In this document: positions 22,751 through 59,806 of the stretch, in pieces
Position numbering within the stretch: the first letter of the stretch is position 1
Layout: each line of letters begins with the position of its first letter
IMG/VR virus record: IMGVR_UViG_2821013286_000001
Span: 1 to 64,000 of that record
Reading direction: 5' to 3' (one strand)
Length of the DNA stretch: 64,000 nucleotides
Source of the DNA: a virus
Taxonomy: Duplodnaviria > Heunggongvirae > Uroviricota > Caudoviricetes
The notes under the pieces: model-generated
Databases searched by the model: none
The model's input: only the letters and a program-made list of their open reading frames with translations
What the model was told of the DNA's origin: nothing
Made by a program: the position numbers and the translations under genes

Positions 22751-25234
22751 ATGCAAGTTTCTCAGATTGCGTCCCTGGACACGCACGTGGTCCTGGGTGG
22801 CGAAAGTGCGCGCGCTTTTAGCATCTCTGATGCGCCTGAATTCTTCACTGTCCTTTCCGACACGCTCTATCAGCACAAAAAGCTCGCTGTTGTCCGCGAA
22901 GTCATCTGCAACGCCTACGATGCTCACATCGTGACGGGTAAGACGGATGTGCCAGTACAGGTCACGTTGACAGATAAGAACCTTGAGATCCGTGATTTCG
23001 GTCTCGGCATTCCCGACGACAAGATTGCGCCGATCTATTGCGTCTATGGGGCCTCTACAAAGGCTGCCGATGGAAAACAGACCGGTGGTTTTGGTCTCGG
23101 TTCGAAGGCGCCTTTCGCTTATTCCGACCACTTCACGGTCACGAGCTGCCATAACGGCGAGAAAACTGTCTATGCGATCTCTCGCGGTGGCGCTGAGACG
23201 GGCGGTCGTCCAGAGGTTCGCGCCGTCGTTCGCATGAAGACCGACGAAACAGGTCTGTCCGTTTCAATTCCGTTGCAGGAAAACGATCGCAATCAGTTTG
23301 AGATCCTGATCAGACGGGTCACGCAGCTCGGCGGAATGAATGTGTCGCTCAATGGCGTAGATATTCCAAAGATCGAATATGATCGCCCTGGCAATGCAGG
23401 CTTCGTCCTAATCCCCTCTTATTCGGACATAATGAGAAATCTGGACAATTACCGGACGACGGTTTTTGTGCGCTACGGAACTGTGGTCTATCCGGTCGAT
23501 GCTGGTCGAGGCGATAGTGAGCTGGACGAAGTGCTTCGTTCGATTGGCTTTGTGCTTGGTTCCAATAGAGCAATTATCGTTCAAGCGCCGGAACACTCCA
23601 TCGGTGTAACACCTTCACGTGAGTCCCTTTCTTACACCAAAAAGACGATGCAAACGCTCGTCCAGATATGTACGTCTGCATTCCATCACATAAAGCGCCA
23701 GATGTCTGTCAGCTTTGCCAACGACTTCGATCATGCGCTCGCTAAGAATAAGGAAAAAGGCGCAGATAAACGCGAAGTGATCTCGCTTATGCTCGGCTCG
23801 TTCGATGGGTCAAGGTTGGACTACAACAAGTCGAACCCTTCGTTGGTAGCGGCGGCCAATGACGGTTACATCAGCAGCCTTGACACAATTGGCTCTGAGC
23901 TTGCCGACAATTACCTGAGTTCGTTCGCTGCGTCCGCGCGTAAGACAGCCTCTCGTCTGGTAGGAAAGCATCATCCAGAGTTGGCGCGCTTGCTTCGCAG
24001 ATGGTCGCCATCTGGCAGTAAATATGACCTGAAACGCGACTACAACAAATTCATGTTGAAGCGCCTAAGCAAGATCAAGGCTTTGATCCAGCCGGTCAAG
24101 TCCGGCTATTTCGATGTGCGCACGAATAGCATCAAGAATGACAGGTTTGAGACCATTTTTGATAGCAGTCAGTTAGTGGCGGATCGAATTGTTGTAAGCC
24201 GAATTCTGCGCGATGCTTACGATGACACCGCCAAGCAGAAATTTGAGTATCATTGCGAATACCACACCGGCTATTACCGAAATTTTCCGGTTTTCACGAT
24301 CAAAAGTGACCTGCCGGAAGCGCGGATTAAGAAGATCACCAAACTCGCAAACAAGCTCGGCTTTCAAATCTCGTTCGCCGAGTACGTGAAGCCAGTTCGG
24401 AAGGCTCCTGCGCCGAAACCTAACTCTGGTTTTCTACGCGCATCGAGCTTCCATCGCTTCGATTATGATGGAAAGATTCAGCCGCGCAACACACTTGAGC
24501 AGGCCGAACTTGAGCGCGTTCCGACGGCGAAGTCCTTCATTCGTGTCACGAGGGCAAGAAACGCAAGACATCTATTCTGGCTTCAGGAAGAGCTGCGGCG
24601 CGATTTTAGCGCGTTCGCCACCCTTTATCCTGACACGGTTCTTGCTACCGATGCTGAAGAGGAAAAGAAGCTGATCAAGCTCGGTGCGCGTCCTGTCCTT
24701 GAGGTTGTTCATGAGGAGCTGAAGGAGGCAACAAAGTTGCAGTCCGCTGCACTTGCATTGGCTTTGCGTCTGCAATGGCACGCCGGGTTCGACGGAGATC
24801 GATACGGCTACGGCTCCAGGGTGAACGATATCGTGAAGCTTTGCTCTGTTTCAGCCGAGTTTGCCAAGTTGGTTCTCGGTGTGAGTGTCAAATACGACGA
24901 AAAGACGGAGCGAATTGCGAAGTTGGGCGATGCTGTTCGTACGGCGATTGGTGTCGCTGGCTTCTCAGAGCAGCGCCGCAACCCATTCACCCACCTGACC
25001 GAACTCTACAATAAACTGAAGGAGAAATATCCAAAGATAATCGGCAATACTGACGCTGTGAAAGAGGCGACAGATTTTATGAAAATAATTGATTCCAACT
25101 ACATCCGCGCAGCAAGCCACAATGATCCCGCTTGCGCTCGTGATGTAATAAATACTGCGAAATATCTTAAACAGAAATTTTCGAAAACTCTCAAGGCTGA
25201 ACAAGCCCAAGCTGTTGTTAAGGAGGCAGCGTAG
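22751..25234 (+). CDS. rIIA: rIIA-like protein (GHKL ATPase N-terminal domain)
   Basis: N-box AVVREVICNAYDAH, G1 IRDFGLGIP, G2 GGFGLGSKAPFAYSDHFTVTSCHNGEK; these track recalled T4 rIIA segments AVVRELITNMIDAH and GGFGLGSKSPFSYTD; 827 aa. Confidence 0.75.
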   Translation: MQVSQIASLDTHVVLGGESARAFSISDAPEFFTVLSDTLYQHKKLAVVREVICNAYDAHIVTGKTDVPVQVTLTDKNLEIRDFGLGIPDDKIAPIYCVYGASTKAADGKQTGGFGLGSKAPFAYSDHFTVTSCHNGEKTVYAISRGGAETGGRPEVRAVVRMKTDETGLSVSIPLQENDRNQFEILIRRVTQLGGMNVSLNGVDIPKIEYDRPGNAGFVLIPSYSDIMRNLDNYRTTVFVRYGTVVYPVDAGRGDSELDEVLRSIGFVLGSNRAIIVQAPEHSIGVTPSRESLSYTKKTMQTLVQICTSAFHHIKRQMSVSFANDFDHALAKNKEKGADKREVISLMLGSFDGSRLDYNKSNPSLVAAANDGYISSLDTIGSELADNYLSSFAASARKTASRLVGKHHPELARLLRRWSPSGSKYDLKRDYNKFMLKRLSKIKALIQPVKSGYFDVRTNSIKNDRFETIFDSSQLVADRIVVSRILRDAYDDTAKQKFEYHCEYHTGYYRNFPVFTIKSDLPEARIKKITKLANKLGFQISFAEYVKPVRKAPAPKPNSGFLRASSFHRFDYDGKIQPRNTLEQAELERVPTAKSFIRVTRARNARHLFWLQEELRRDFSAFATLYPDTVLATDAEEEKKLIKLGARPVLEVVHEELKEATKLQSAALALALRLQWHAGFDGDRYGYGSRVNDIVKLCSVSAEFAKLVLGVSVKYDEKTERIAKLGDAVRTAIGVAGFSEQRRNPFTHLTELYNKLKEKYPKIIGNTDAVKEATDFMKIIDSNYIRAASHNDPACARDVINTAKYLKQKFSKTLKAEQAQAVVKEAA

Positions 25235-25235
25235 A

Positions 25236-26654
25236 ATGAGAAAGGTAACAGTAGCCGCAGCGATCATCACCAAAACGGGCGTTATGCTCTATACGGCTGA
25301 TGGCAAGGAAGTACCGCTCGCGTCAGATGGCTGGCGCACTCAGGAAATTCTTAACCTCGTAACGCCGGTCATCGCGCGCCGCAAAACTATCGAAATCGAC
25401 TTGGACAGCTTCTCGCTGGAGCATGAGGTCGAGCGCAAGACCAACGGCTTTGTTCGCTTCTTCCGCAAGGTCGGTGCGAGCATCACCAGTCTCTTTGGCA
25501 CGAAGGACGGTCAGACAGAACTCGTCACTGACACGCTTACGGAGGCCACAACCGTCGCTGTTGTCAACGGCAAGGAAATTCCAGGAATGGAAAACCTTGA
25601 AAACCACATGATCCACGCCGTTGAAAACGATCAGACGGAAGGTCTCAAAAACTTCCTGGACCGTCTATCTCGCGTGATTGATGAGCGCGGACACTCGGTG
25701 CAGGAACTCCTCAACTTCATGAAGAAGGCTGACCTTCCGATTGCCAATGACGGCTCGATCATCGCCTACAAGACGCTCAACAAGAGCGAGGATCGGTTCG
25801 TTGACTGCCACACCGGCAATGTCAAGCAGCGCGTCGGCTCGCGTGTATCGATGCCGATTGGTTTGGTTGATAAGAACCGCCGCACACTCTGCTCGACTGG
25901 TCTGCACATTGCGCGTCTCCGCTATCTGCGTGGTTACAACGGTAATGTTCTGACACTGGTTAAGATCGCACCGGAAGACGTCGTGAGCGTTCCCTACAGC
26001 GAACCTGACAAGATGCGTGTGGCAGCTTACCACATCGTCAAGCTGCTTCCAGATGACGCTGCGCGTGCCGTTTTCAGCGGTGCATCGATCGCAGGGAACA
26101 AGGAAGCTGAAAAGATGCTTGCTGACGTGATTGCTGGAAAGCACATTCATGTCATCGAGGAAGTTCACATCAAAGGCTCGTACGGCACTGATATCGAAAC
26201 CACTGTCCTTGATGACAAATATAAGCCGGTCGAATCGATTGCCGATTTGTCAACGAAGCCTGTGAAGGTCGAGCTGGTCAAGGAAGGTGGTGGCGGTAAG
26301 CCCGTCGATATCGAGAAGATCCGCGAAACCGCAGACAAGGCGATCGCTGAAAAGGCGAGCGAGACAGAAGTCAAGAAACCTGAAGTCTCCAACGTTGTCG
26401 AGTTCGATGCGGCCAAGACGGTGAACAGTTCAAAGTCGAAGTCGAAGCCGAAGAAGAAAGCCGCCGCTGCGGTGAAGGCTGAGGTTGCGAAGGCTCGTCC
26501 ATCGGTCCCTGCCGCGCCTGACGGCATGAGCGAGCGTGACTTCCAGGTTCTGGCATTGCTCGACAAGGGTGTGTCCAAATCCCAGATCGAACGTGACATG
26601 AAGATTTGCCACAAGACGATCAATAAGATCCTGAAGAAGCATCGCGCTGCCTAA
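25236..26654 (+). CDS. rIIB: rIIB-like protein with C-terminal HTH
   Basis: Central CSTGLHIARLRYLRGY...PEDVVSVPYSEPDKMRVAAYHIV resembles recalled T4 rIIB core (CSRGLHVCS...DVVSIP...KMR); C-terminal LuxR/sigma-region-4-like helix-turn-helix (ERDFQVLALLDKGVSKSQIERDMKICHKTINKIL); AGGAGG SD. Confidence 0.55.
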   Translation: MRKVTVAAAIITKTGVMLYTADGKEVPLASDGWRTQEILNLVTPVIARRKTIEIDLDSFSLEHEVERKTNGFVRFFRKVGASITSLFGTKDGQTELVTDTLTEATTVAVVNGKEIPGMENLENHMIHAVENDQTEGLKNFLDRLSRVIDERGHSVQELLNFMKKADLPIANDGSIIAYKTLNKSEDRFVDCHTGNVKQRVGSRVSMPIGLVDKNRRTLCSTGLHIARLRYLRGYNGNVLTLVKIAPEDVVSVPYSEPDKMRVAAYHIVKLLPDDAARAVFSGASIAGNKEAEKMLADVIAGKHIHVIEEVHIKGSYGTDIETTVLDDKYKPVESIADLSTKPVKVELVKEGGGGKPVDIEKIRETADKAIAEKASETEVKKPEVSNVVEFDAAKTVNSSKSKSKPKKKAAAAVKAEVAKARPSVPAAPDGMSERDFQVLALLDKGVSKSQIERDMKICHKTINKILKKHRAA

Positions 26655-33720: not shown

Positions 33721-35121
33721 ATGAATATTACAGGGCATACTCTTATCGAATGGGGCTTTAAGCCTGGTCCGATGTTTAAGCAGATGATTGCGGCTGCAAA
33801 CGAAATGCGCGCCAACTGCGTTCTGGACACGGACATTATCGCTCAACTGCACGATCTGGAGCCGGTTGTCGCGCCAACCATTCCGCTGCGCACAAATTCG
33901 ATCCCTTTCGGCCAGTTCATCGAGCCGGAAACTGCTGATGAAATTGAGAACACGGAAGCTGTTATTCGTCACATGGACGCGCTCATGCGCGTCCCAACGA
34001 TCAAGGCTGGCGCAATCATGCCTGACGCCTGTCCTTCCGGCTCCGCGCTTGGAACAATCCCGGTCGGTGGTGTCGTTGCATGCGAGAACGCCATTCATCC
34101 AGGCTTCCATTCTGCCGACATCTGTTGCTCGATGGCTATTTCGATCCTCAATCGCCGTGACGATGTTGGAAAGGTTCTGGACGCGGCGATGAAGTCCACG
34201 CATTTCGGCCCAGGTAAGCGCGCAGCGAGCGAAGTGCGTCAGAATAAGGAAGTTGTTCATCTGATCGAGAAATTCGCTCAGAACCCGTTCCTTGACGGTT
34301 TGGAGAGCTATGGCACGCACCACTTCATGACGCAGGGCGACGGTAATCATTTCCTCTACGTTGGTGAGCTGGAATCGAGCGGCCAGATGGTCATCGTAAC
34401 CCATCACGGTTCTCGCGGCCTGGGAGCGCAGCTCTACAAGCGTGGCAAGCGTGTGGCCGAGAAACACACCAAGATCGTGGCTCCGCGCGTCCCGTTACAC
34501 AACGCCTGGATTGAGGCCAGCTCCATTGATGGTGAAAACTACTGGCAGGCGCTTCAGACGGTTCGCCAGTGGACGAAGATGAACCATTTCGCCATCCACG
34601 ACCTGATTGCTCGGCGTTTGGGCGTTCGCGTGAACGACCGTTTCTGGAACGAGCATAATTTCGTGTTCCAGAAGTCTGACGGCCTTTTCTATCACGCCAA
34701 AGGCGCAACACCTGCTTATGACGGCTTCAGTGCTGATGACAGCGGCTACACGCTCATTCCCCTGAATATGTCTCAGCCGATCCTGATTGCCGGCCACACC
34801 AACTATGATCACGCGCTTGGCTTCGCGCCGCATGGTGCCGGTCGGAATATGTCGCGTACGCAGCATATCAAGCGCCTCGCAGCCGAGTTCGGCGATGACC
34901 GTGGTCTTGGTCCAAAAGCGATTGAGGCAATCATGGCGCGTGAGACGAAAGGTCTGGACGTTCGGTTCTACACGGGCGCGCCGGACGTGTCTGAGCTGCC
35001 TACTGCCTATAAGAACGCCGCACAGGTGCAGGAACAGATTCGAAAGCACAGACTGGCGACGATCGCGGATCGCGTGATGCCGCTTGGTTCAATCATGGCA
35101 GGTGAAGTGCACTGGAAATAA
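33721..35121 (+). CDS. rtcB: RtcB RNA 3'-phosphate ligase
   Basis: RtcB motifs MPDACPSGSALG, GDGNHFLYVGE...VTHHGSRGLGAQ, YHAKGATP, APHGAGRNMSR. Confidence 0.8.
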   Translation: MNITGHTLIEWGFKPGPMFKQMIAAANEMRANCVLDTDIIAQLHDLEPVVAPTIPLRTNSIPFGQFIEPETADEIENTEAVIRHMDALMRVPTIKAGAIMPDACPSGSALGTIPVGGVVACENAIHPGFHSADICCSMAISILNRRDDVGKVLDAAMKSTHFGPGKRAASEVRQNKEVVHLIEKFAQNPFLDGLESYGTHHFMTQGDGNHFLYVGELESSGQMVIVTHHGSRGLGAQLYKRGKRVAEKHTKIVAPRVPLHNAWIEASSIDGENYWQALQTVRQWTKMNHFAIHDLIARRLGVRVNDRFWNEHNFVFQKSDGLFYHAKGATPAYDGFSADDSGYTLIPLNMSQPILIAGHTNYDHALGFAPHGAGRNMSRTQHIKRLAAEFGDDRGLGPKAIEAIMARETKGLDVRFYTGAPDVSELPTAYKNAAQVQEQIRKHRLATIADRVMPLGSIMAGEVHWK

Positions 35122-36183: not shown

Positions 36184-36369
36184 TTTCTATTCCATTTTCG
36201 CAGTGTCCCAAACCTATCTAGCCGTTAGGTTAAGTCACTGTGACGCTTTTTCAGAATAATGCTGACATCTGATAACTAAAGATTATCGATGGTTATCGGA
36301 AATGCCGCATTGCCTCGAATTTGCAGCCGCTTTAAAGCGGCTTTTCCATTATCTGACCGGAACTCGACA

Positions 36370-36783
36370 ATGAAAAAGCTACTCGTATTGGCCTCACTCC
36401 TGGCGGCCACATCCACAGCTTATAGCGAAGAGCCATCTATTGGCGTCCAAATTGCCTGTTCTTCCTTCGAAGGAATGGCCGACAAAATTATACGCATGCG
36501 CATGGATGGAGCAAAACGCGAGGACGTTGAAGCCGTATATACACGGAGCAGCCCATCTAACCCGACGGATCTTTTCTTCCGCGATGCCTCGCTCGAAATT
36601 ATCCGAAGCGCTTTTAAAGGTGACGTGCCGGACAGGGACGCACTCTACACAATCAGGAAAGAAACCAGCCTCGCTTTCTCGAAAGGCTGGCGTGCCGTCT
36701 GTGAGTACCGTTTTGAAAACATGACTTATGATAAGTCCATCTTCAAGATCAAGGACGGCAACGGTAATACTATTGAGCCGTAA
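36370..36783 (+). CDS. secreted protein (signal peptide)
   Basis: MKKLLVLASLLAATSTAYS signal peptide; ATG 36370 in track ORF 36289..36783. Confidence 0.45.
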   Translation: MKKLLVLASLLAATSTAYSEEPSIGVQIACSSFEGMADKIIRMRMDGAKREDVEAVYTRSSPSNPTDLFFRDASLEIIRSAFKGDVPDRDALYTIRKETSLAFSKGWRAVCEYRFENMTYDKSIFKIKDGNGNTIEP

Positions 36784-36855: not shown

Positions 36856-37278
36856 ATGCGCAGCGTCATCGAGCAAAACATCAAGACAGCCGGACAGCAC
36901 ATTATCGGCGTCTTCGATCCTGAGCAGAAGCGAGACAGCTTCGCATACACTGTCGGCAATGCACCGCAAGGTTTCCCAGAACTCCTTCTGATCGGCAGCT
37001 TTCCACCAAATGTCATGATGATGATGCTGAATGCCGTTGGCACTCATATGCGCAACGCGGAATCGCCGCTCGAAGAAGGTATGCTCGATATCGACTGGAC
37101 CTTCCCTTTCAAGATCCGCAAGACTGGTGAGCGCGCCAAGGCCGACTTCACCGTCCAGGCAGGGCAGTATCTCGGCCGCGAGGACTACGAAGTCCTTCAG
37201 GTCATGATTTGCGACAAGCACGGCAAATATCCCGGTGATGCGGGGGTCGCCGAAGGTTTCGATGTAGAACAGCCATAA
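36856..37278 (+). CDS. hypothetical protein
   Basis: 140 aa; AAGAGG SD. Confidence 0.45.
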   Translation: MRSVIEQNIKTAGQHIIGVFDPEQKRDSFAYTVGNAPQGFPELLLIGSFPPNVMMMMLNAVGTHMRNAESPLEEGMLDIDWTFPFKIRKTGERAKADFTVQAGQYLGREDYEVLQVMICDKHGKYPGDAGVAEGFDVEQP

Positions 37279-37681
37279 TTGACGAGCTGGAGCAGCACAA
37301 ATGACCTGGAAGATAGTGTGAGGGTGGCTCCCTCCGTGAAATGAAGCCCCGGCTGAAAGAAATGTACCGGTTATCACATATTCAGACCCTCTTCGCCGAC
37401 GAGCGCTAGAGTGACATGCCGAGGCAATTTGAAGGCCGCTGTCAGAGAGGGAATGAACTGTCACCGCACCCGTCAGGGCAGTCTTGGTGAGAATAATCAA
37501 TCCGTAGAACTCGCCATGCTGGACGACCGCCAGCGCAAAGCGTTTGAACGGGGTAATCGCTTGATTGCTCACGATCCGCACTTCACCCTCCTCGAAGACG
37601 CATTCCTACATGGTGCTGACGTACGAGGGGCTGTGCTGATCAATGAACAATCGAGACAGAGCCTGTTGCTTTTCGTGACAT

Positions 37682-37711
37682 GCTATGTAAATGAATGTTT
37701 ATACACATAGG
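37682..37711. promoter_or_regulatory. palindromic intergenic element
   Basis: ctatgTAAATGAATGTTTATACAcatagg before the small-peptide gene and the alarmone hydrolase gene. Confidence 0.5.
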
Positions 37712-37718
37712 AATCACA

Positions 37719-37811
37719 TGACACGTCTCTTTCTTATTTCCGTAGGTGTTTATGCGCTGTTCGTGGCCGCCAGCTATGTCAGTCCGTCCGCCAACCTGAT
37801 CCAGTGGTGAA
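37719..37811 (+). CDS. small membrane peptide (30 aa)
   Basis: MTRLFLISVGVYALFVAASYVSPSANLIQW; AGGAAT SD; directly after a palindromic element and before the hydrolase gene. Confidence 0.25.
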
Positions 37812-37814
37812 ACA

Positions 37815-38396
37815 ATGAAGCTCGATCCAATAACGCAGCCCCTCGCCTTCCGTGCACGCATCTACGCCGCTGGCGCACACGCAGCCATTGATCAGCGCCG
37901 CAAATACTCGACAGAGCCATACATCGTTCATCCGATTTCTGTTGCCTGCATTCTGAGTAACTACGGCTATGAGGATGACATTGTCCTGGCTGCGGCGCTG
38001 CTACACGACGTCATCGAGGACACGAAAATTACGGCCGAGGAGCTGCGCAGCGAGTTCAAGCATATTCCTGGCGCCAAGAAGATGATCAAGGCTGTCGTTG
38101 AGCTTACGAACGTCGATCGCTCATTTGGAAATCGAGCGACACGTAAGGCTGAGGACCGTCGTCGCCTGTCTCTCGCAAGCAAAACGGCTCATCTGGTGAA
38201 ATGCGCGGACATTCTGGACAACATCACCGGCATTTCGCAGCGCGATCCAAAATTCGGAGAAGTGTATGCGTCCGAAGCGCTCCAGACGCTCAATGTGCTG
38301 ACGCTGGCAGATGACGAAATGCTCACGCTCGCCAAACATCGAGCAGACAAAGAACTGCATCAATGCAGCCTTATTAATTCAAAAACAAAGCAATAA
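37815..38396 (+). CDS. small alarmone hydrolase (RelA/SpoT-family HD-domain (p)ppGpp hydrolase)
   Basis: PYIVHPISVACIL...IVLAAALLHDVIEDT matches the SpoT hydrolase core (PYI.HPL.VA.IL....AALLHDVIEDT); 193 aa, no synthetase domain. Confidence 0.75.
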   Translation: MKLDPITQPLAFRARIYAAGAHAAIDQRRKYSTEPYIVHPISVACILSNYGYEDDIVLAAALLHDVIEDTKITAEELRSEFKHIPGAKKMIKAVVELTNVDRSFGNRATRKAEDRRRLSLASKTAHLVKCADILDNITGISQRDPKFGEVYASEALQTLNVLTLADDEMLTLAKHRADKELHQCSLINSKTKQ

Positions 38397-38413: not shown

Positions 38414-38438
38414 ATTTGTATAAATGTTTATATTAATC
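38414..38438. promoter_or_regulatory. palindromic intergenic element
   Basis: tttgTATAAATGTTTATATtaatc after the alarmone hydrolase gene. Confidence 0.5.
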
Positions 38439-38568: not shown

Positions 38569-38862
38569 ATGAAAGGAAATATTATGCGCAATTTCAAGTA
38601 CGTTCTTCTTGCAGCAGGCGCCATCGTTGTCGGTGGTTTCGCATACGCAAACTATGCCGAGGCGGCTCCACTCACGAGCGAACAGCACCAGGGCGCCAGC
38701 CGCTCCGAACGCTCCGATCGCGGCGACAGCGAAAGCGGCAAGGGTGAAAATGGCGGCAAGGGCAACGCAGGCAATTCTGGCTCCGAAGGCTCCGCATCGT
38801 CTGGCGGTGATACCTCCGGTGGCGAAGGCGGTGAAGGTTCCGGCAATAGCGCATCGAAGTAA
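38569..38862 (+). CDS. secreted/membrane-anchored Gly/Ser-rich low-complexity protein
   Basis: N-terminal hydrophobic segment then GDSESGKGENGGKGNAGNSGSEGSASSGGDTSGGEGGEGSGNS. Confidence 0.4.
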   Translation: MKGNIMRNFKYVLLAAGAIVVGGFAYANYAEAAPLTSEQHQGASRSERSDRGDSESGKGENGGKGNAGNSGSEGSASSGGDTSGGEGGEGSGNSASK

Positions 38863-39507: not shown

Positions 39508-39915
39508 ATGATCCGCTATATTCTTCCACTCGCCTTGCTGGCACTCACCGGCTGTCAAACTGCCGGAAACGTCAACGACAATATGCTTGCCGGCCAGAAG
39601 CCAGCGACTGCAGCCGACCGCCGCAGTATCGCAGAGCATGCGCGTGTTCACATGAAAGACCCCTACTCCATCCGTGATGCGGAAATTTCATACACGATGC
39701 CGAACGGCAAGCGGAACGGTCAGGACGTTCGCTTCGTATGCTTCCGTGCAAATGCCAAGAATTCCTATGGAGCCTACACCGGGATTCAGTCCCACTCGGC
39801 TGGTCTTTATCCAGATGGTTCGCTTACGGATGTCAGCTCAAATGTCCATTGGTGCAATAAGCCTGGCATGAAGTGGCAGCGCTTCTCGGAGTTAGAAAAC
39901 ATTAGAAGTCTCTAA
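39508..39915 (+). CDS. lipoprotein
   Basis: Signal peptide with lipobox LALTGC; followed by an intrinsic terminator. Confidence 0.5.
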   Translation: MIRYILPLALLALTGCQTAGNVNDNMLAGQKPATAADRRSIAEHARVHMKDPYSIRDAEISYTMPNGKRNGQDVRFVCFRANAKNSYGAYTGIQSHSAGLYPDGSLTDVSSNVHWCNKPGMKWQRFSELENIRSL

Positions 39916-49282: not shown

Positions 49283-49546
49283 TCAGCCCTTGGAATTTTC
49301 CTTGTACCAAAGGTCCACTGCCTCATAGATCACCTGGGTCAATGTCTTATCGACCGCGACAGCTGCGCCCTTCAGCTTACGATGCCACTCACGATCCACG
49401 ATCACATTGAGCTGTGAGGTGGTTTTGGCGCGCATGTTATCCGCTGGCTTGATGTTGGTATCAAGCGACGTGGCAAAATACGAGCGCTGTGCGGTGCGCG
49501 GTGCCTTCTTTGGCGTGTAGTCTTCTTCATCGTCTGCCATCTTCAC
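49283..49546 (-). CDS. ParG-like ribbon-helix-helix partition protein
   Basis: 87 aa, basic N-terminus, C-terminal RHH-like segment LNVIVDREWHRKLKGAAVAVDKTLTQVIYEAV; 4-nt overlap with the upstream ParA gene. Confidence 0.45.
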   Translation of the reverse strand: MKMADDEEDYTPKKAPRTAQRSYFATSLDTNIKPADNMRAKTTSQLNVIVDREWHRKLKGAAVAVDKTLTQVIYEAVDLWYKENSKG

Positions 49547-50184
49547 ACTCCTGTCCGCTCATCAACCAGTTTATAAATTTCTGTCAGAAGACGCTTGGCG
49601 TCACGCTTGAGCGTGGCAACCTTGACTTCCTGCACCGCTAGTCCTGTCGAGTTCGCAAACGCGTAGGTCGGTCGGAACTTGATCTCGGTCTTGGCGATCT
49701 TGAAACCGCCGCCGCTAATCAATTCGCGCGTCTCCTTGACGGCAATCGCGCTATCGACGGATTTGCTGATGACGAACAGGATATCATCTTTTTTGGCACC
49801 TTTATCGACCAGCTCCAGCGCGAACGCGAGCTGCGGCTCCACATCGTCTGCGATCGGCGCGGTCGGAATAAGGATCAGACGAGAGGCGAGGGCGATATCG
49901 AGCGAGGTATCGTGACTGTCTGGCTTGCCATCGGCCACAACCAGATCGACGCGCTCTTTGCTAAGCATGGACGGCTTGGCATAAGGCTTTGCATCAATCG
50001 CAGGCTCGTATTGGGCCGCCTTGCGTTTCTCATTCCATTTGAAGGAGGTTAGCTGTGTGGTGTTGAAGTCGGCAATCTTCACAGACCAATCATTGCTCGC
50101 ATAGCCAACCGCAATCATGCGCGACAATGTGGATTTTCCGACGCCGCCCTTCTGGCTGAGACAGGAAATAATGACCGGTTCCAT
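49543..50184 (-). CDS. parA: ParA/ParF-type partition ATPase (small type Ib)
   Basis: Deviant Walker A SQKGGVGKST; 213 aa; followed by a small RHH gene. Confidence 0.75.
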   Translation of the reverse strand: MEPVIISCLSQKGGVGKSTLSRMIAVGYASNDWSVKIADFNTTQLTSFKWNEKRKAAQYEPAIDAKPYAKPSMLSKERVDLVVADGKPDSHDTSLDIALASRLILIPTAPIADDVEPQLAFALELVDKGAKKDDILFVISKSVDSAIAVKETRELISGGGFKIAKTEIKFRPTYAFANSTGLAVQEVKVATLKRDAKRLLTEIYKLVDERTGV

Positions 50185-52072: not shown

Positions 52073-52831
52073 ATGATAAACCCCGAATATCTAACGGTTT
52101 CGGCATCGACACTTCGCAAGAACCCCTGGAACACGAACATCGTGTCTGCGGACAATGAAGCGAAGATACGAGAGTCGATCACGCGAAACGGTCTTTTCAA
52201 ACCGATCATAGTCAGAGAGGTAGCGGGTATTGCCGGCTACGAGATCATCGGCGGTGAGCACCGTTGGGAACAGGCGATTGAGCTTGGACATACAGACGTT
52301 CCGATCGTCAATCTCGGCCAGATCGATGACCGTCATGCCAAAGAGATCGGCATCATCGACAATGCGCGGTACGGCGCTGACGATACGGTTGGCCTCGGCG
52401 ATATTCTGAAGGAACTTGGCAATCTCGATGAGATCCAGTCATTCCTTCCCTACGGCGACACTGATCTGAAGCTGCTTTTTACGGCAGGCGAGATCGATCT
52501 CGATGCACTCGGCGATGAGGCTACCGATGCTGAGACAGCCGAAGCTGAAGGCGTTGAGGAAGAAGTTGCCGCGAAGCCGGTCAAAACCCACACGGTTGTG
52601 CGCTTCAAAATCTCCCTTTCAGATGCAGAACGCGTAACCGCACTTGTTGCCAAGACACAGAAAACGCACGGCTACACGACGGAAGATGAGCTGACCAATG
52701 CCGGTGACGCTCTAATCCACATTCTCTCGCAGTTTTTCCCGCAAGCCGCATCCAAGAGCGAAAGCGACGACGATTTCGGCTCGGAAATGAACATTCTCGA
52801 TGAACTTGATTACGCCCTGGAGGCAAAATGA
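52073..52831 (+). CDS. ParB-like nuclease-domain protein 1
   Basis: ParB N-terminal domain pattern KPIIVREVAG...YEIIGGEHRWEQAIELG...VPIVNL; acidic C-terminus. Confidence 0.6.
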   Translation: MINPEYLTVSASTLRKNPWNTNIVSADNEAKIRESITRNGLFKPIIVREVAGIAGYEIIGGEHRWEQAIELGHTDVPIVNLGQIDDRHAKEIGIIDNARYGADDTVGLGDILKELGNLDEIQSFLPYGDTDLKLLFTAGEIDLDALGDEATDAETAEAEGVEEEVAAKPVKTHTVVRFKISLSDAERVTALVAKTQKTHGYTTEDELTNAGDALIHILSQFFPQAASKSESDDDFGSEMNILDELDYALEAK

Positions 52832-53496
52832 TTCATACCGTAGAACTTTGGGACGTTGAAAAGCTCGTTCCTTACGAACTCAACGCCAAAAAGCATCCTG
52901 ATTTCCAGATCGAGAAGCTTGCACGCTCGATCAAGAAGTTCGGCTTTTCCAGCCCGATTGTCGTCTGGGGCAATGGCGAGATCATCGCCGGCCACGGTCG
53001 CCGCCTGGCTTCAATCAAACTTGGACTGACGAAGGTTCCGGTTGTCGTGCGCGCGGATCTCTCGAAGGCCGAAGCTGACGCGATGCGGCTTGCTGACAAC
53101 CGCGTGGCCTCGACTGAATATGATCAGGAAATGGTGCAGGAAGAGCTGCGCCGTCTCAATGAGCTGATCATGACCGAAGACATCGATCTGGACCTGTCAC
53201 TGACTGGCTATGACGAAAAGGAACTCAATTTCACGCTGGCCGATATGGGCGAAATGAGCTTCGACCACTTCGTTGATGACGTTGGCGCTGCTCTCGAAGA
53301 GCAGAAACAGGAAACGGCCAAGGTTATTGCCGACACCGACGACACGGCAGCGCCTGTGGTGGATGCCCTCGGCTTCAAACGCCTTCCCATTGCACAGTCG
53401 CGCCAGCTGCGCGAGTTCATGCGGCAGATTGAAACCCAGACCGGCCTGAAAGGTGCTGACGCTCTCATGCAGTTCCTCACGGCTTCTTTGGCCTAA
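52828..53496 (+). CDS. ParB-like nuclease-domain protein 2
   Basis: SPIVVWGNGEIIAGHGRRLASIKLGL.KVPVVV; ATGA overlap with paralogue 1. Confidence 0.6.
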   Translation: MIHTVELWDVEKLVPYELNAKKHPDFQIEKLARSIKKFGFSSPIVVWGNGEIIAGHGRRLASIKLGLTKVPVVVRADLSKAEADAMRLADNRVASTEYDQEMVQEELRRLNELIMTEDIDLDLSLTGYDEKELNFTLADMGEMSFDHFVDDVGAALEEQKQETAKVIADTDDTAAPVVDALGFKRLPIAQSRQLREFMRQIETQTGLKGADALMQFLTASLA

Positions 53497-56853: not shown

Positions 56854-58125
56854 GTGGCCGATCTTAATCAGTACGTCAAACTTCATCGCGGTCAGGCTCT
56901 CGTTATGCGGGACCGTCGGCGTTTTCGCGTTGTTGTAGCTGGCCGCCGTTGGGGAAAGACACGCCTTTCCCAGACCTGTTTGATTACGGCAGCTGGTAAT
57001 CCAAAAAGTCTCGTCTGGTACGTTGCGCCGACCTATCAGATGGCGCGAGACATTATGTGGGATGAGCTGAAAGCAGCCGTTCCGCAAGCTTGGATGGCTC
57101 GGCCGCCAAACGAAACACGCATGATCATCTATCTGCTGAACGGCGCACGCATTCAGCTGAAGGGTGCGGATAAACCGGACACGCTGCGCGGCGTCGGCCT
57201 GACATTTGTTGTGATCGATGAGGCGCAGGATATTCGTGAGACGACCTGGCAGGAAGTTCTACTGCCGACGCTCGCCTCTACCAATGGCCGTGCACTGATC
57301 ATCGGCACGCCAAAAGCCTATAACTGGCTCTATGACAAATACGTTCTCGGTCAGCGCGGCGACACCTACAAGGACGAAAAAGGAAACATCGTCGCCAATG
57401 AATGGCGCTCGTGGCAGTTTCCGACCATCACGTCGCCATTTATTCCGCGTGCAGAAATCGAAGCGCGTCGCGCCGATATGGACCCTCGCTCGTTCCGCCA
57501 GGAGTTCGAGGCATCGTTCGAAACCATGTCTGGCCGCGTTTACTACGCCTTCGACCGCAACTTGCATGTTGATGACCTGGCAATCGACAAGACATTGCCG
57601 CTCTATATCGGCATGGACTTCAATATCGATCCGATGTCGGCTGTTGTCTTGCAGGAGCAGAAGAACGGCGAGATATGGGCGATTGATGAGATCGTACTTT
57701 ACGGCTCGAATGCCGAAGAGACAGGCGACGAAATCATGTCGCGCTATTTCAAATACGCCAACAGCATGTCGCTCTATCCAGATCCGGCCGGCAACAACCG
57801 CAACCACGATCGCGGCGAGTCCTCTATCGACATTCTGCGCGAGCAGGGCTTCAAGCATATCTATTTCAAGCGCAAGCACCCTGCCGTTCAGGACCGCGTG
57901 GCCTCTGTGAATCGCCTGCTGATGTCGGCTGACGGTCAGGTTCGGCTGCGCGTGGACCGGAAGTGCAAAAAGCTGATCGATAGTCTTGAACAGACCATCT
58001 ACAAGCCAGGCACCAAGGAAGTTGACAAGTCGCTAGGCGTCGAGCACGTGACCGATGCTTTGGGCTACTTTACCGATTATCGTCATCCTGTTCGCAAGGC
58101 TCGTATTCTGGGTGTCGAACTTTGA
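56854..58125 (+). CDS. terminase large subunit
   Basis: Walker A VVAGRRWGKT, Walker B FVVIDEAQD, C-terminal RNase-H-like nuclease region (IGMDFNIDPMSAVVLQE); GTG start. Confidence 0.8.
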   Translation: MADLNQYVKLHRGQALVMRDRRRFRVVVAGRRWGKTRLSQTCLITAAGNPKSLVWYVAPTYQMARDIMWDELKAAVPQAWMARPPNETRMIIYLLNGARIQLKGADKPDTLRGVGLTFVVIDEAQDIRETTWQEVLLPTLASTNGRALIIGTPKAYNWLYDKYVLGQRGDTYKDEKGNIVANEWRSWQFPTITSPFIPRAEIEARRADMDPRSFRQEFEASFETMSGRVYYAFDRNLHVDDLAIDKTLPLYIGMDFNIDPMSAVVLQEQKNGEIWAIDEIVLYGSNAEETGDEIMSRYFKYANSMSLYPDPAGNNRNHDRGESSIDILREQGFKHIYFKRKHPAVQDRVASVNRLLMSADGQVRLRVDRKCKKLIDSLEQTIYKPGTKEVDKSLGVEHVTDALGYFTDYRHPVRKARILGVEL

Positions 58126-58192: not shown

Positions 58193-59806
58193 TTGTCTGA
58201 ATCATTGGAAATGCTGTCTGAGTTTTACTTCAGACGGCACCCAGAATACGACCAGAAGCTGGATCACTGGCGCTTTTGCCGTGCTACCTACAAAGGTGGC
58301 CGCGAGTGGTTTGCTGGCAACATCTTCAAATACTACAAGGAAGGCACTCGCGAATACCGCAAGCGCATCGAGCGCGCCTACCGCTTCAATCACACCAAGG
58401 AAGTCGTTGAGCTTGTCCAGAAATATCTGTTCAAGGCTCCGGTTCAGCGTTCGCCTGACGCTCATGACCTCATCAAGAAGTTCTGGGCAAAGGCCACTCT
58501 TGCAGGCGGCGATATCGACACGCTCGTGCGCGCCGGTTCAACGTCCAACTCGCTGACCGGCATTTGCGCGGTCGTGGTGGACAACAATGCACCGCTCGAT
58601 GACAAGGCCGCGATCTCGATCAAGGATGCGGAGGATATCAGTATCTATGCCTATATCGTGGACGCAGAAGACGTTCTCGATTGGGCCTACGATGAAGATG
58701 GCGACGGTCAGCTTCTTTGGGTAAAGATCCGCGAATTCGTTCGCGATGACGCCGACTATCTGAATTCTACTGGCGATCTGGTTGAGCGTGTCCGCGTATG
58801 GACACGCAAAGAGTGGATCTTGTACGAGCCGCGCTCCACGAAGGCGCTACCTGGCGTCGGACGCACGGCCAATCAGAAGCGTACTGGCATTTCTGTCATC
58901 GAGACGAAGCGCGGCACGCATGACCTTGGTTTCGTTCCTGTCGAGCTGTTCCGTCACACTCCGACTGAGGAGCCTTACGCGTGTTCGTCGCTGATTGACG
59001 AGATTTCCTATCTCGACCGCACGGTCGCCAACTACCTTTCGAACCTCGACGCCATTATTCAGGACCAGACGTTCTCGCAGCTTGCCATTCCGGCTCAGTC
59101 GGTATCGAGCGCTGACGACGACAACAAGAAAGTCCTGGAAATGTCGACGAAGCGCGTCTTCACCTATGACGGTGGCGCCGGTTCGCATTCAAAACCTGAA
59201 TTCATTTCGCCTGATCCCAAACAGGCAGGCGTTATTCTCGATGTGATCAATAAGATCATCAGCGAAATTTACCACACGATCGGCCTTGCTGGTGAGCGCA
59301 CCAAAGAGGACAACTCGGTCGGTATCGATAACAGCTCCGGTGTCGCTAAGGCATATGACTTCGAGCGCGTGAACGCACTGCTGCGTTCCAAAGCTCTCAT
59401 GTGCGAGAAGCTGGAGAACTGGCTTGTCAAATGCGTTCTCGCTTATGCTGGAGAAGAGACCGCAGTTGACGAAAAGCTTGTCACTTATCCGTCCACGTTC
59501 GACGTAATGCGGCTGGCGGATGAGCTGACAACTGCGGAGGCACTTCAGAAGATCTCGGCACCTGATGAAGTCCGTCAACTCCAAATGAAAAACCTGACCA
59601 AGAAGCTGTTTCCGCAGATCGACAAGAAAGCGGAACAGAAGATTGGCAAGTCTATTGACGATTGGAAGCCTTCCGAAGTGGCGAAAACAGCAGCGCCATT
59701 TGGGAACGATCCAGCCGCCAAGGGCAAACAACCGTCTGATAAGGACAAGTCCGTAGCGCAGCCGAAGCGTCAGGGACAGGTCACGAAGGACACCCCATCT
59801 AAGTAA
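58193..59806 (+). CDS. portal protein (putative)
   Basis: 537 aa, immediately downstream of the large terminase in canonical order; start ambiguous (TTG 58193 or ATG 58211). Confidence 0.5.
   Translation: MSESLEMLSEFYFRRHPEYDQKLDHWRFCRATYKGGREWFAGNIFKYYKEGTREYRKRIERAYRFNHTKEVVELVQKYLFKAPVQRSPDAHDLIKKFWAKATLAGGDIDTLVRAGSTSNSLTGICAVVVDNNAPLDDKAAISIKDAEDISIYAYIVDAEDVLDWAYDEDGDGQLLWVKIREFVRDDADYLNSTGDLVERVRVWTRKEWILYEPRSTKALPGVGRTANQKRTGISVIETKRGTHDLGFVPVELFRHTPTEEPYACSSLIDEISYLDRTVANYLSNLDAIIQDQTFSQLAIPAQSVSSADDDNKKVLEMSTKRVFTYDGGAGSHSKPEFISPDPKQAGVILDVINKIISEIYHTIGLAGERTKEDNSVGIDNSSGVAKAYDFERVNALLRSKALMCEKLENWLVKCVLAYAGEETAVDEKLVTYPSTFDVMRLADELTTAEALQKISAPDEVRQLQMKNLTKKLFPQIDKKAEQKIGKSIDDWKPSEVAKTAAPFGNDPAAKGKQPSDKDKSVAQPKRQGQVTKDTPSK

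Follow-up and report, generated by a model that had tools for sequence, protein, structure and literature searches.

Does the open reading frame (ORF) at positions 37815-38396 of a viral genome fragment encode a working small alarmone hydrolase (SAH), and what would such an enzyme do for the phage that carries it? The fragment, hereafter the window, is the whole stretch of 64,000 nucleotides (positions 1 to 64,000) of IMG/VR record IMGVR_UViG_2821013286_000001, a member of the Caudoviricetes. An earlier note, made from the nucleotide sequence alone, had read the frame as a phage-encoded SpoT-type hydrolase of the HD type without a synthetase, standing alone behind its own palindromic element and a 30-residue membrane mini-ORF. 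On the evidence gathered here, the gene is almost certainly a genuine, intact, stand-alone SAH of the RelA/SpoT-homologue (RSH) superfamily, and a conserved structured RNA lies upstream of it.

A single-domain hydrolase with an intact active site

The 193-residue frame and its core PYIVHPISVACIL...AALLHDVIEDT were found exactly where the earlier note had placed them. Profile searches assign the protein to the RSH hydrolases. It matches two Pfam families and no others: HD_4 (PF13328; E=2.7e-14, 53.6 bits), which lies above the curated threshold (gathering cut-off 27.2), and HD (PF01966; E=5.8e-6). Residues 18-156 align to positions 5-138 of the 687 positions in the NCBIfam model spoT_relA (TIGR00691), corresponding to its N-terminal hydrolase part only. 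Because this match is limited to the first 138 model positions, the protein comprises the hydrolase domain and no other; no synthetase, TGS or ACT domain is present in its 193 residues, which is the architecture of a single-domain SAH. It also falls in PHROG 990 (‘metal-dependent phosphohydrolase’, E=4.5e-32). In a search of the PDB, the proteins of solved structure that match it best in sequence are the metazoan hydrolase MESH1 and the hydrolase domains of SpoT and Rel enzymes (E ~1e-12). The same protein, 100% identical, is present at NCBI as NIH77384.1 / WP_166943483.1 (‘HD domain-containing protein [Ochrobactrum sp. P20RRXII]’). The enzyme family is well known and has already been tested; this protein, already annotated in that database, is an ordinary representative.

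All HD metal ligands, the loss of which the earlier note had singled out as the point to check by alignment, are present. In the HMMER alignment with human MESH1 (3nr1), H39, H64-D65 and D132 correspond to H35, H61-D62 and D122, and R29, E68-D69 and N136 correspond to R24, E65-D66 and N126. The active-site columns also agree with those of Bacillus subtilis Rel and Acinetobacter baumannii SpoT. We take these MESH1 and Rel residues to be the Mn2+ ligands and catalytic residues, as is established for the family. The same positions are conserved more widely: in an alignment of 81 homologues, H22, R29, Y36, H39, P40, H64, D65, E68, D69, T70, G105, R107, R110, K129, D132, N136 and E154 are invariant. 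An alignment of 55 sequences, among them the proteins of phages SSU5, phiKM1, RHph_X66, RHEph10 and ORM_20, shows the identical set of invariant positions.

The fold is likewise that of an RSH hydrolase. An AlphaFold2 model built from the 81-sequence alignment is all-helical, with 11 helical segments, and is predicted with very high confidence (predicted local distance difference test 97.7, predicted template modeling score 0.93). When the model was compared with the PDB using Foldseek, hits 1 to 46 were all RSH hydrolases. MESH1 ranked first (template modeling (TM) scores 0.76/0.83, root-mean-square deviation 2.0 Å, 31% identity), followed by Corynebacterium glutamicum RelH, the SAHs of L. 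levettii and Pseudomonas aeruginosa, Aph1, and the hydrolase domains of Rel and SpoT. Profile matches, conserved residues and predicted fold thus uphold the original reading of the gene as a phage SpoT-type HD hydrolase that lacks a synthetase.

The gene lies in a phage genome. The window encodes rIIA (22751-25234), rIIB (25215-26654), the large terminase (56854-58125) and the portal protein (58193-59806), together with both subunits of ribonucleotide reductase and SbcC- and SbcD-like nuclease subunits. A megablast search of the region from 30 to 46 kb against GenBank phages gave no match at the DNA level, so the phage is without a close sequenced relative, and protein comparisons were used to find its kin. 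Its portal protein shares 54-56% identity with the portal proteins of Rhizobium phages of 115-122 kb, namely RHph_X66, B1VFA, V1VFA-S and RHEph10. Two contigs carry the identical hydrolase, one of 107,890 bp in the assembly of an Ochrobactrum isolate and one of 107,825 bp in Logan (run SRR10127684).

Predicted substrates and role in infection

The residues that would contact the base offer a first indication of the substrate. In the Rel enzyme of Thermus thermophilus (TtRel), R43-R44-S45 touch the guanine base, whereas the (p)ppApp-specific hydrolase Aph1 has D24-K25-A26 there (PMC10083569). A D24R/R119A double mutant of Aph1 acquires activity on ppGpp (PMC10083569). The base-binding loop of the window protein reads R29-K30-(Y31)-S32, with R29 equivalent to TtRel R43 and MESH1 R24, a configuration predicted to be able to use (p)ppGpp. 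An Aph1-type hydrolase specific for (p)ppApp was considered and rejected, as the window protein has Arg (R29) where Aph1 has Asp (D24); this comparison concerns the D24 position, the only one of the Aph1 signature D24/R96/D116/R119/K133/Y134 that was mapped in the window protein. Hydrolysis of (p)ppApp has been reported for seven enzymes, and since six of these are outside the Aph1 family (MESH1 from two species, PaSAH, XccSAH, ATfaRel and SAHMex; PMC10083569), dual specificity for (p)ppGpp and (p)ppApp would be the default expectation for the window protein.

On the basis of the family chemistry, Mn2+ held by H39, H64, D65 and D132 would activate a water molecule for removal of the 3'-pyrophosphate from (p)ppGpp, with R29-K30-S32 and N136 holding the base and ribose. 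(p)ppApp is very probably also a substrate, and tRNA pyrophosphorylated at its 3' CCA end plausibly is as well. As synthetase, TGS and ACT domains are missing, the hydrolase would escape allosteric control by the state of the ribosome or synthetase, and is presumably constitutively active. It is probably expressed together with the 30-residue mini-ORF from the phage's own promoter-like motif. Its activity would keep the infected cell out of a growth arrest imposed by alarmones or by toxic small alarmone synthetases (toxSAS), and translation and nucleotide supply could then continue for the phage. The explanation that best accounts for the observations, to which we assign a probability of about 0.78, is an active, constitutive, Mn2+-dependent 3'-pyrophosphohydrolase that clears (p)ppGpp, (p)ppApp and possibly pyrophosphorylated tRNA.

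Published experiments on homologues agree with roles of this kind, which the earlier note had put forward as proposals: stripping of host alarmones, and countering of toxSAS, including those that pyrophosphorylate tRNA. When co-expressed, the stand-alone SAHs of Salmonella phages PVP-SE1 (subfamily PbcSpo) and SSU5 (PaSpo) neutralize CapRel, PhRel, PhRel2, FaRel and FaRel2 (Jimmy et al. 2020, PMC7229694). The same study explicitly proposed that phages bypass alarmone-based defense through SAHs (PMC7229694). MESH1 and ATfaRel make tRNA that has been pyrophosphorylated by FaRel2 chargeable again and restore aminoacylation (Kurata et al., bioRxiv 10.1101/2021.04.30.441581), and PaSpo-SSU5 is reported to take off the tRNA modification made by FaRel2 (10.1101/2024.07.05.602228). 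PaSpo-SSU5 is in routine use for detoxifying CapRel-SJ46 and FaRel2, and SAHs are routinely annotated in recent phage genome papers. Our literature searches found no infection-level evidence for any phage SAH as a counter-defense, the support being co-expression of the SSU5 and PVP-SE1 homologues. As such evidence did not turn up, the Rhizobium-phage clade, with conserved SAH and RtcB genes and culturable Rhizobium hosts, would be a reasonable test system.

How the phage would profit is less certain than what the enzyme does. The main benefit could well be the removal of the host's own stringent-response alarmones, though we put this at somewhat short of even odds; that it is the countering of a toxSAS-type defense is a possibility we hold only tentatively. 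The two roles can coexist, and sequence cannot decide between them. RHph_X66 and RHEph10, among the related Rhizobium phages, carry the gene as well, and its retention across the window phage and this clade fits a useful role in infection.

Several points weigh against so specific an interpretation. The window protein is at most 41% identical to any characterized enzyme, and its substrates, metal, expression unit and biological role are read from sequence. The PaSpo label comes from pairwise comparison, and the P. aeruginosa SAH (6yvc, 6z3n, 6z3o) was matched weakly (phmmer E 0.008-0.03). SAHs are promiscuous, MESH1 also using NADPH, and the physiological substrate is not legible in the sequence. 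No toxSAS has been shown in the host, the genome of which was not searched for one. Finally, a promoter function for the motif upstream is suggested by its recurrence and position only.

Among the alternatives, the one that survives best is that the gene is a moron, of benefit to a lysogen or carrier state and not to lytic growth, that protects the host from (p)ppApp-synthetase toxins of competitors (Tas1-like type VI secretion effectors, MuF toxins) or retunes its stringent response. The phage is a separate contig of ~108 kb in the assembly of a bacterial isolate, Ochrobactrum sp. P20RRXII, and is possibly a phage-plasmid. SSU5, the source of the closest tested homologue and named here as a comparison, is a phage-plasmid. 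The window encodes a ParA/CbiA-like ATPase and two ParB_N proteins, but the ParA match is weak (E=1e-6) and ParB_N proteins are common in lytic phages. Likewise, the best hit among GenBank phages, phiKM1, is temperate and has its SAH beside an integrase and HicAB, and many homologues are on megabase-sized bacterial contigs; however, no integrase was seen in the window, the phages closest to it in portal protein were isolated on Rhizobium, and the window has genes of lytic style (rIIA/B, ribonucleotide reductase, SbcCD-like nuclease). On balance, we consider a carrier-state function unlikely.

Less likely again is a metabolic phosphatase that acts on another 2'- or 3'-phosphorylated nucleotide and adjusts redox or nucleotide pools of the host, as MESH1 does with NADPH, or as the Xanthomonas SAH might suggest. 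MESH1 is the best structural match and has been deposited in the PDB with NADPH and phosphoadenosine phosphosulfate (5vxa, 9chy); with its ribonucleotide reductase, the phage commits resources to nucleotide metabolism; and SAH promiscuity is documented for the Xanthomonas enzyme (PMC9765508). Against these stand the alarmone-contacting residues R29-K30, N136 and E68-D69, all retained and invariant, the abundance of the alarmone substrate in bacteria, and the activity of the closest tested enzyme, SSU5 PaSpo, on toxSAS products. A degenerate HD protein that binds nucleotides or proteins without hydrolysis, for which nothing specific speaks beyond a generic possibility open to any homologue, is extremely improbable given that the protein has every metal ligand and catalytic residue, none of which varies in the family, and that the very confident predicted model superposes on active enzymes.

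Mini-ORF, recurrent motif and structured RNA at the locus

As summarized in Table 1, the hydrolase follows a DUF4262 gene, a structured RNA, a near-palindromic motif and a mini-ORF. The closest relative of the locus is a 2-kb Logan contig (L007), the hydrolase of which is 74-75% identical and in which the order DUF4262, RNA, motif, mini-ORF, SAH is kept, with the 3' end of DUF4262 at the start of the contig.

Table 1. Positions of the features at and around the hydrolase gene; unless an L number is given, coordinates are those of the window. L numbers are handles for the compared loci.
Feature	Position	Strand	Remarks
Small alarmone hydrolase (SAH) gene	37815-38396	+	ATG start; 193 residues; single RSH-type HD domain; PaSpo-like
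Hydrophobic mini-ORF, 30 residues, MTRLFLISVGVYALFVAASYVSPSANLIQW	37718-37810	+	One predicted transmembrane stretch; ends 4 nt before hydrolase ATG
Near-palindromic promoter-/operator-like motif (consensus ~TRNATAAAYRTTTAYACA)	37683-37710	.	Inverted repeat, arms 37683-37695 and 37698-37710
Second motif copy	38414-38437	.	Immediately downstream of hydrolase; conserved in L007; probably serves next transcription unit
Motif sites (examples from 21)	1233, 7014, 9022, 12061, 16050, 20955, 26666, 37694, 38423, 47194, 49197, 50285, 52039, 56171, 58141, 60885		
Conserved structured RNA, ~320-360 nt (~360 in window)	37296-37657	+	Boundaries approximate; overlaps ORF 37411-37710
RNA copies in related loci	L007:66-420; L010:2099-2418; L011:388-735; L012:1183-1527; L014:7127-7438		L012 copy on - strand
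Further RNA copies	L018, L020, L022, L028, L029, L030, L032, L034		
DUF4262 protein	36856-37278	+	PF14081, E=2.4e-23; directly upstream of RNA element
RtcB-type RNA ligase	33721-35121	+	Pfam RtcB, E=2.3e-28; PHROG 1075 ‘tRNA splicing ligase’
Acb2/Tad1 hairpin-domain protein, 76 residues	47552-47782	+	PF24729, E=2.4e-18, above cut-off
ParA/CbiA-like ATPase	49543-50184	-	Weak match, E=1e-6
Two ParB_N-domain proteins	52073-52831; 52828-53496	+; +	

The membrane mini-ORF noticed earlier is real: gene callers report it in the Logan contig, and it is conserved without a frameshift in L007, where 21 of the 30 residues are identical and the replacements are mostly hydrophobic for hydrophobic. A general partnership with SAHs was rejected, since the mini-ORF is missing upstream of the 59-62% identical homologues in L008 and L009 and from the SSU5, RHph_X66 and RHEph10 loci. 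It is a lineage-specific companion of the hydrolase, with which it is probably co-transcribed and perhaps translationally coupled. Because the pair is bracketed by two copies of the motif, their position suggests a two-gene unit.

The palindromic element of the earlier note also exists, with 93% conservation in L007, but it is not private to the gene: some 21 copies occur across the phage sequence. With no more than one mismatch allowed, the window has 19 copies of the core AATGTTTATA, where 1.96 are expected, and the looser pattern AAYRTTTAYA has 21 copies with conserved flanks (~TRNATAAAYRTTTAYACA). Copies typically lie 15-60 nt upstream of genes on the + strand, mostly in short intergenic gaps, and precede replication-type and structural genes alike, including the ORF before the terminase (start 56200), the portal gene and the gene after rIIB. 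The motif occurs in L007 and L010 and was not found in the loci examined from the Rhizobium-phage relatives. From where it recurs, a phage promoter or operator confined to this lineage is the probable reading. A scan for sigma-70 promoters and terminators around the gene found nothing beyond shuffled expectation.

Between DUF4262 and the motif lies the structured RNA, in a region where a 99-residue ORF (37411-37710, + strand; an 85-residue gene in the Logan annotation) had been called. This ORF, which overlaps both the RNA and the motif, was rejected as a probably spurious gene, because the window and L007 differ by five frameshifting indels of 1 or 2 nt within the block 37366-37682, no gene is called in the matching stretch of L007, the ORF has no Pfam hit, and the covariation is of the RNA type. 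The block itself is 83% identical between window and L007, compared with 69% for the 3' end of DUF4262 and 76% for the mini-ORF.

Copies of the RNA were gathered by scanning IMG/VR with two invariant blocks, by a metagenome scan and with an nhmmer profile. They occur in 15 other viral contigs, mostly of 101-120 kb, with one copy per contig; one copy, in a 115,042-bp contig, is truncated at the edge of the locus. Another lies in the GenBank phage RHph_X66 (L004:11553-11891; MW960030 ~116345-116683), inside an unannotated gap of 518 nt. The RNA is carried by RHEph10-like phages. Two blocks, CGCTTGATTGCTCACGATCC and GATCAATGAACAATCG, show little or no variation among the copies.

Strong covariation between paired positions points to a conserved structure. 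RNAalifold, applied to 14 sequences, gave 53 pairs, 25 of them with compensatory changes; the paired segments beside the invariant GATCC, for example, read GCAC/GTGC, TCTC/GAGA, ACTC/GAGT, GCTC/GAGC, AGCC/GGCT and CCTC/GAGG. A covariance model of the 3' domain recovers 16 copies (E 2e-9 to 4e-55) and matches the window once, at 37457-37657 (147 bits). In the model-based alignment, 92% of cells are paired (82.9% in shuffles) and 13 of the 30 pairs have changes in both partners (7.6 in shuffles), with none of 500 shuffles reaching the observed value by any measure. This shuffle test overstates the significance, because the sequences are related and their alignment was fitted to the model structure. 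Stronger evidence comes from the number of different pair types and from a slide control: when partners were shifted by 1-3 columns, only 27-45% of cells remained paired. Invariant G-U pairs place the RNA on the + strand. The folding energy of the single sequence is unremarkable (z=0.42).

No match to the RNA was found in Rfam, either at the gathering score or at E<=1, and a permissive scan of five copies gave scattered chance hits only; a blastn ‘distant’ search with the RNA against GenBank phages returned nothing. A resemblance to RNase P or the cobalamin riboswitch, seen by eye, was dropped as it was unsupported by cmscan.

What follows the RNA differs between phages. Within 5-40 nt after its 3' end (...GATCAATGAACAATCG) come a ribosome-binding site of the GGAGAT type and a small ORF that varies by phage; in the window and in L007, the sequence continues with a short hairpin and its U-run, then the promoter-like motif, the mini-ORF and the hydrolase. 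In the relatives, no link of the RNA to SAH or RtcB was found: in RHph_X66, ~5 kb separate the SAH from the RNA copy downstream of it, and the 6 kb to either side of the RHEph10 SAH contain no copy. We therefore regard the RNA as a conserved element in its own right, placed ahead of a gene position whose content varies; in this lineage, the hydrolase cassette occupies that position. A bolder proposal, which we regard as doubtful, would make it a cis-acting leader or processing signal for interchangeable accessory or anti-defense cargo in RHEph10-like phages of Rhizobiaceae and Brucellaceae, with SAH (taking the 3'-pyrophosphate off CCA ends) and the nearby RtcB (resealing cleaved tRNAs) acting, in the window phage, as a counter-defense pair for tRNA repair.

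The annotation of this region should thus be corrected in three respects: the palindrome is a lineage-specific, genome-wide motif, the ORF at 37411-37710 is probably no gene, and a structured RNA is present there instead. Absent from Rfam and unannotated in RHph_X66, this RNA is more interesting than the hydrolase at this locus. It and the genome-wide motif merit follow-up; the hydrolase itself adds little.

The wider neighborhood contains no partner synthetase. No gene within ±10 kb of the hydrolase has a RelA_SpoT synthetase hit in Pfam, and in that sense the gene does stand alone, as had been noted. Since no toxSAS gene lies within that distance, the hydrolase is not part of a toxin-antitoxin module; the neighbors are the mini-ORF, the RNA element and DUF4262, and a type IV antitoxin of a toxSAS module was rejected. 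The RtcB gene is 2.7 kb upstream of the hydrolase, and RHEph10 has the same order, with 2.6 kb between an RtcB gene and the SAH downstream of it, so this arrangement is partly conserved. Speculatively, the two may form a tRNA-repair pair. ARAGORN detected no tRNA or tmRNA genes in the window. About 10 kb downstream of the hydrolase, the 76-residue Acb2/Tad1-like protein is a candidate anti-defense sponge for the signaling nucleotides of CBASS or Thoeris. The region looks like an accessory or anti-defense region, which fits, and does not demonstrate, a counter-defense role of the hydrolase.

Three small ORFs nearby (36289-36783, 38584-38862 and 39508-39915, all on the + strand) have N-termini that resemble signal peptides or lipoboxes. 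Examples are a Gly/Ser-rich protein of 92 residues and the ...LALLALTGCQ of a 135-residue ORF. None of the three has a Pfam hit, and they may encode secreted or envelope proteins.

Comparison with known hydrolases

Stand-alone HD proteins of the RSH type are common in phages. By tblastn, 211 GenBank phage records contain homologues; none reaches 60% identity, and the best, at 44.7%, is in Komagataeibacter phage phiKM1. In phiKM1 (LC644974; L002 3286-4465), the homologue overlaps the end of a HicA/HicB pair near an integrase and tRNA-Ser, a temperate context quite unlike that of the window.

Compared with characterized enzymes outside the phages, the window protein is structurally closest to MESH1 (HDDC3) of human and Drosophila (PDB 3nr1, 5vxa, 3nqw), with TM scores of 0.76-0.83, a similar size, a single domain and identical active-site residues. 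MESH1 differs in being metazoan and in having a physiological role that includes NADPH phosphatase activity. Relative to it, the base-binding loop of the window protein has one residue inserted (Y31), and the protein carries a GNRxxR motif that is characteristic of the bacterial and phage clade to which it belongs. The long RSH enzymes SpoT and Rel (PDB 7qpr, 8acu, 1vj7, 6s2t) are the best sequence matches in the PDB and have conserved motifs of the HD1-HD6 type, but they carry synthetase, TGS and ACT domains that the window protein is without. Aph1 (PDB 7smg) has an HD fold of the same superfamily (TM 0.58/0.76) with a sequence match of only E 1e-4; at ~145 residues, it lacks helices present in (p)ppGpp hydrolases, in contrast to the 11 helical segments of the window model.

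Among SAHs tested against toxSAS, ATfaRel (PbcSpo), the antitoxin of the FaRel module of Cellulomonas marina, has superfamily and chemistry in common with the window protein. Like the PVP-SE1 enzyme, it neutralizes all toxSAS tested (PMC7229694). The PVP-SE1 protein itself (gp220, PbcSpo) is 39% identical to the window protein over only 70 residues; at 43.5 bits, so short a match suggests a different subfamily. The SSU5 PaSpo enzyme (SSU5_099, AFL47026.1) is considerably closer, at 41% identity over 153 residues and 102 bits, and it is on this difference in score that the window protein is called PaSpo-like. Both are single-domain, stand-alone phage SAHs with all catalytic residues and the family-specific GNRxxR motif. 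The SSU5 protein is longer (213 versus 193 residues, with an extended C-terminus) and comes from an unrelated type of phage that infects Salmonella and not Ochrobactrum, and neither the mini-ORF nor the motif precedes its gene. The window gene extends the known spread of PaSpo-like phage SAHs to a phage from an Ochrobactrum assembly and to its Rhizobium-phage relatives.

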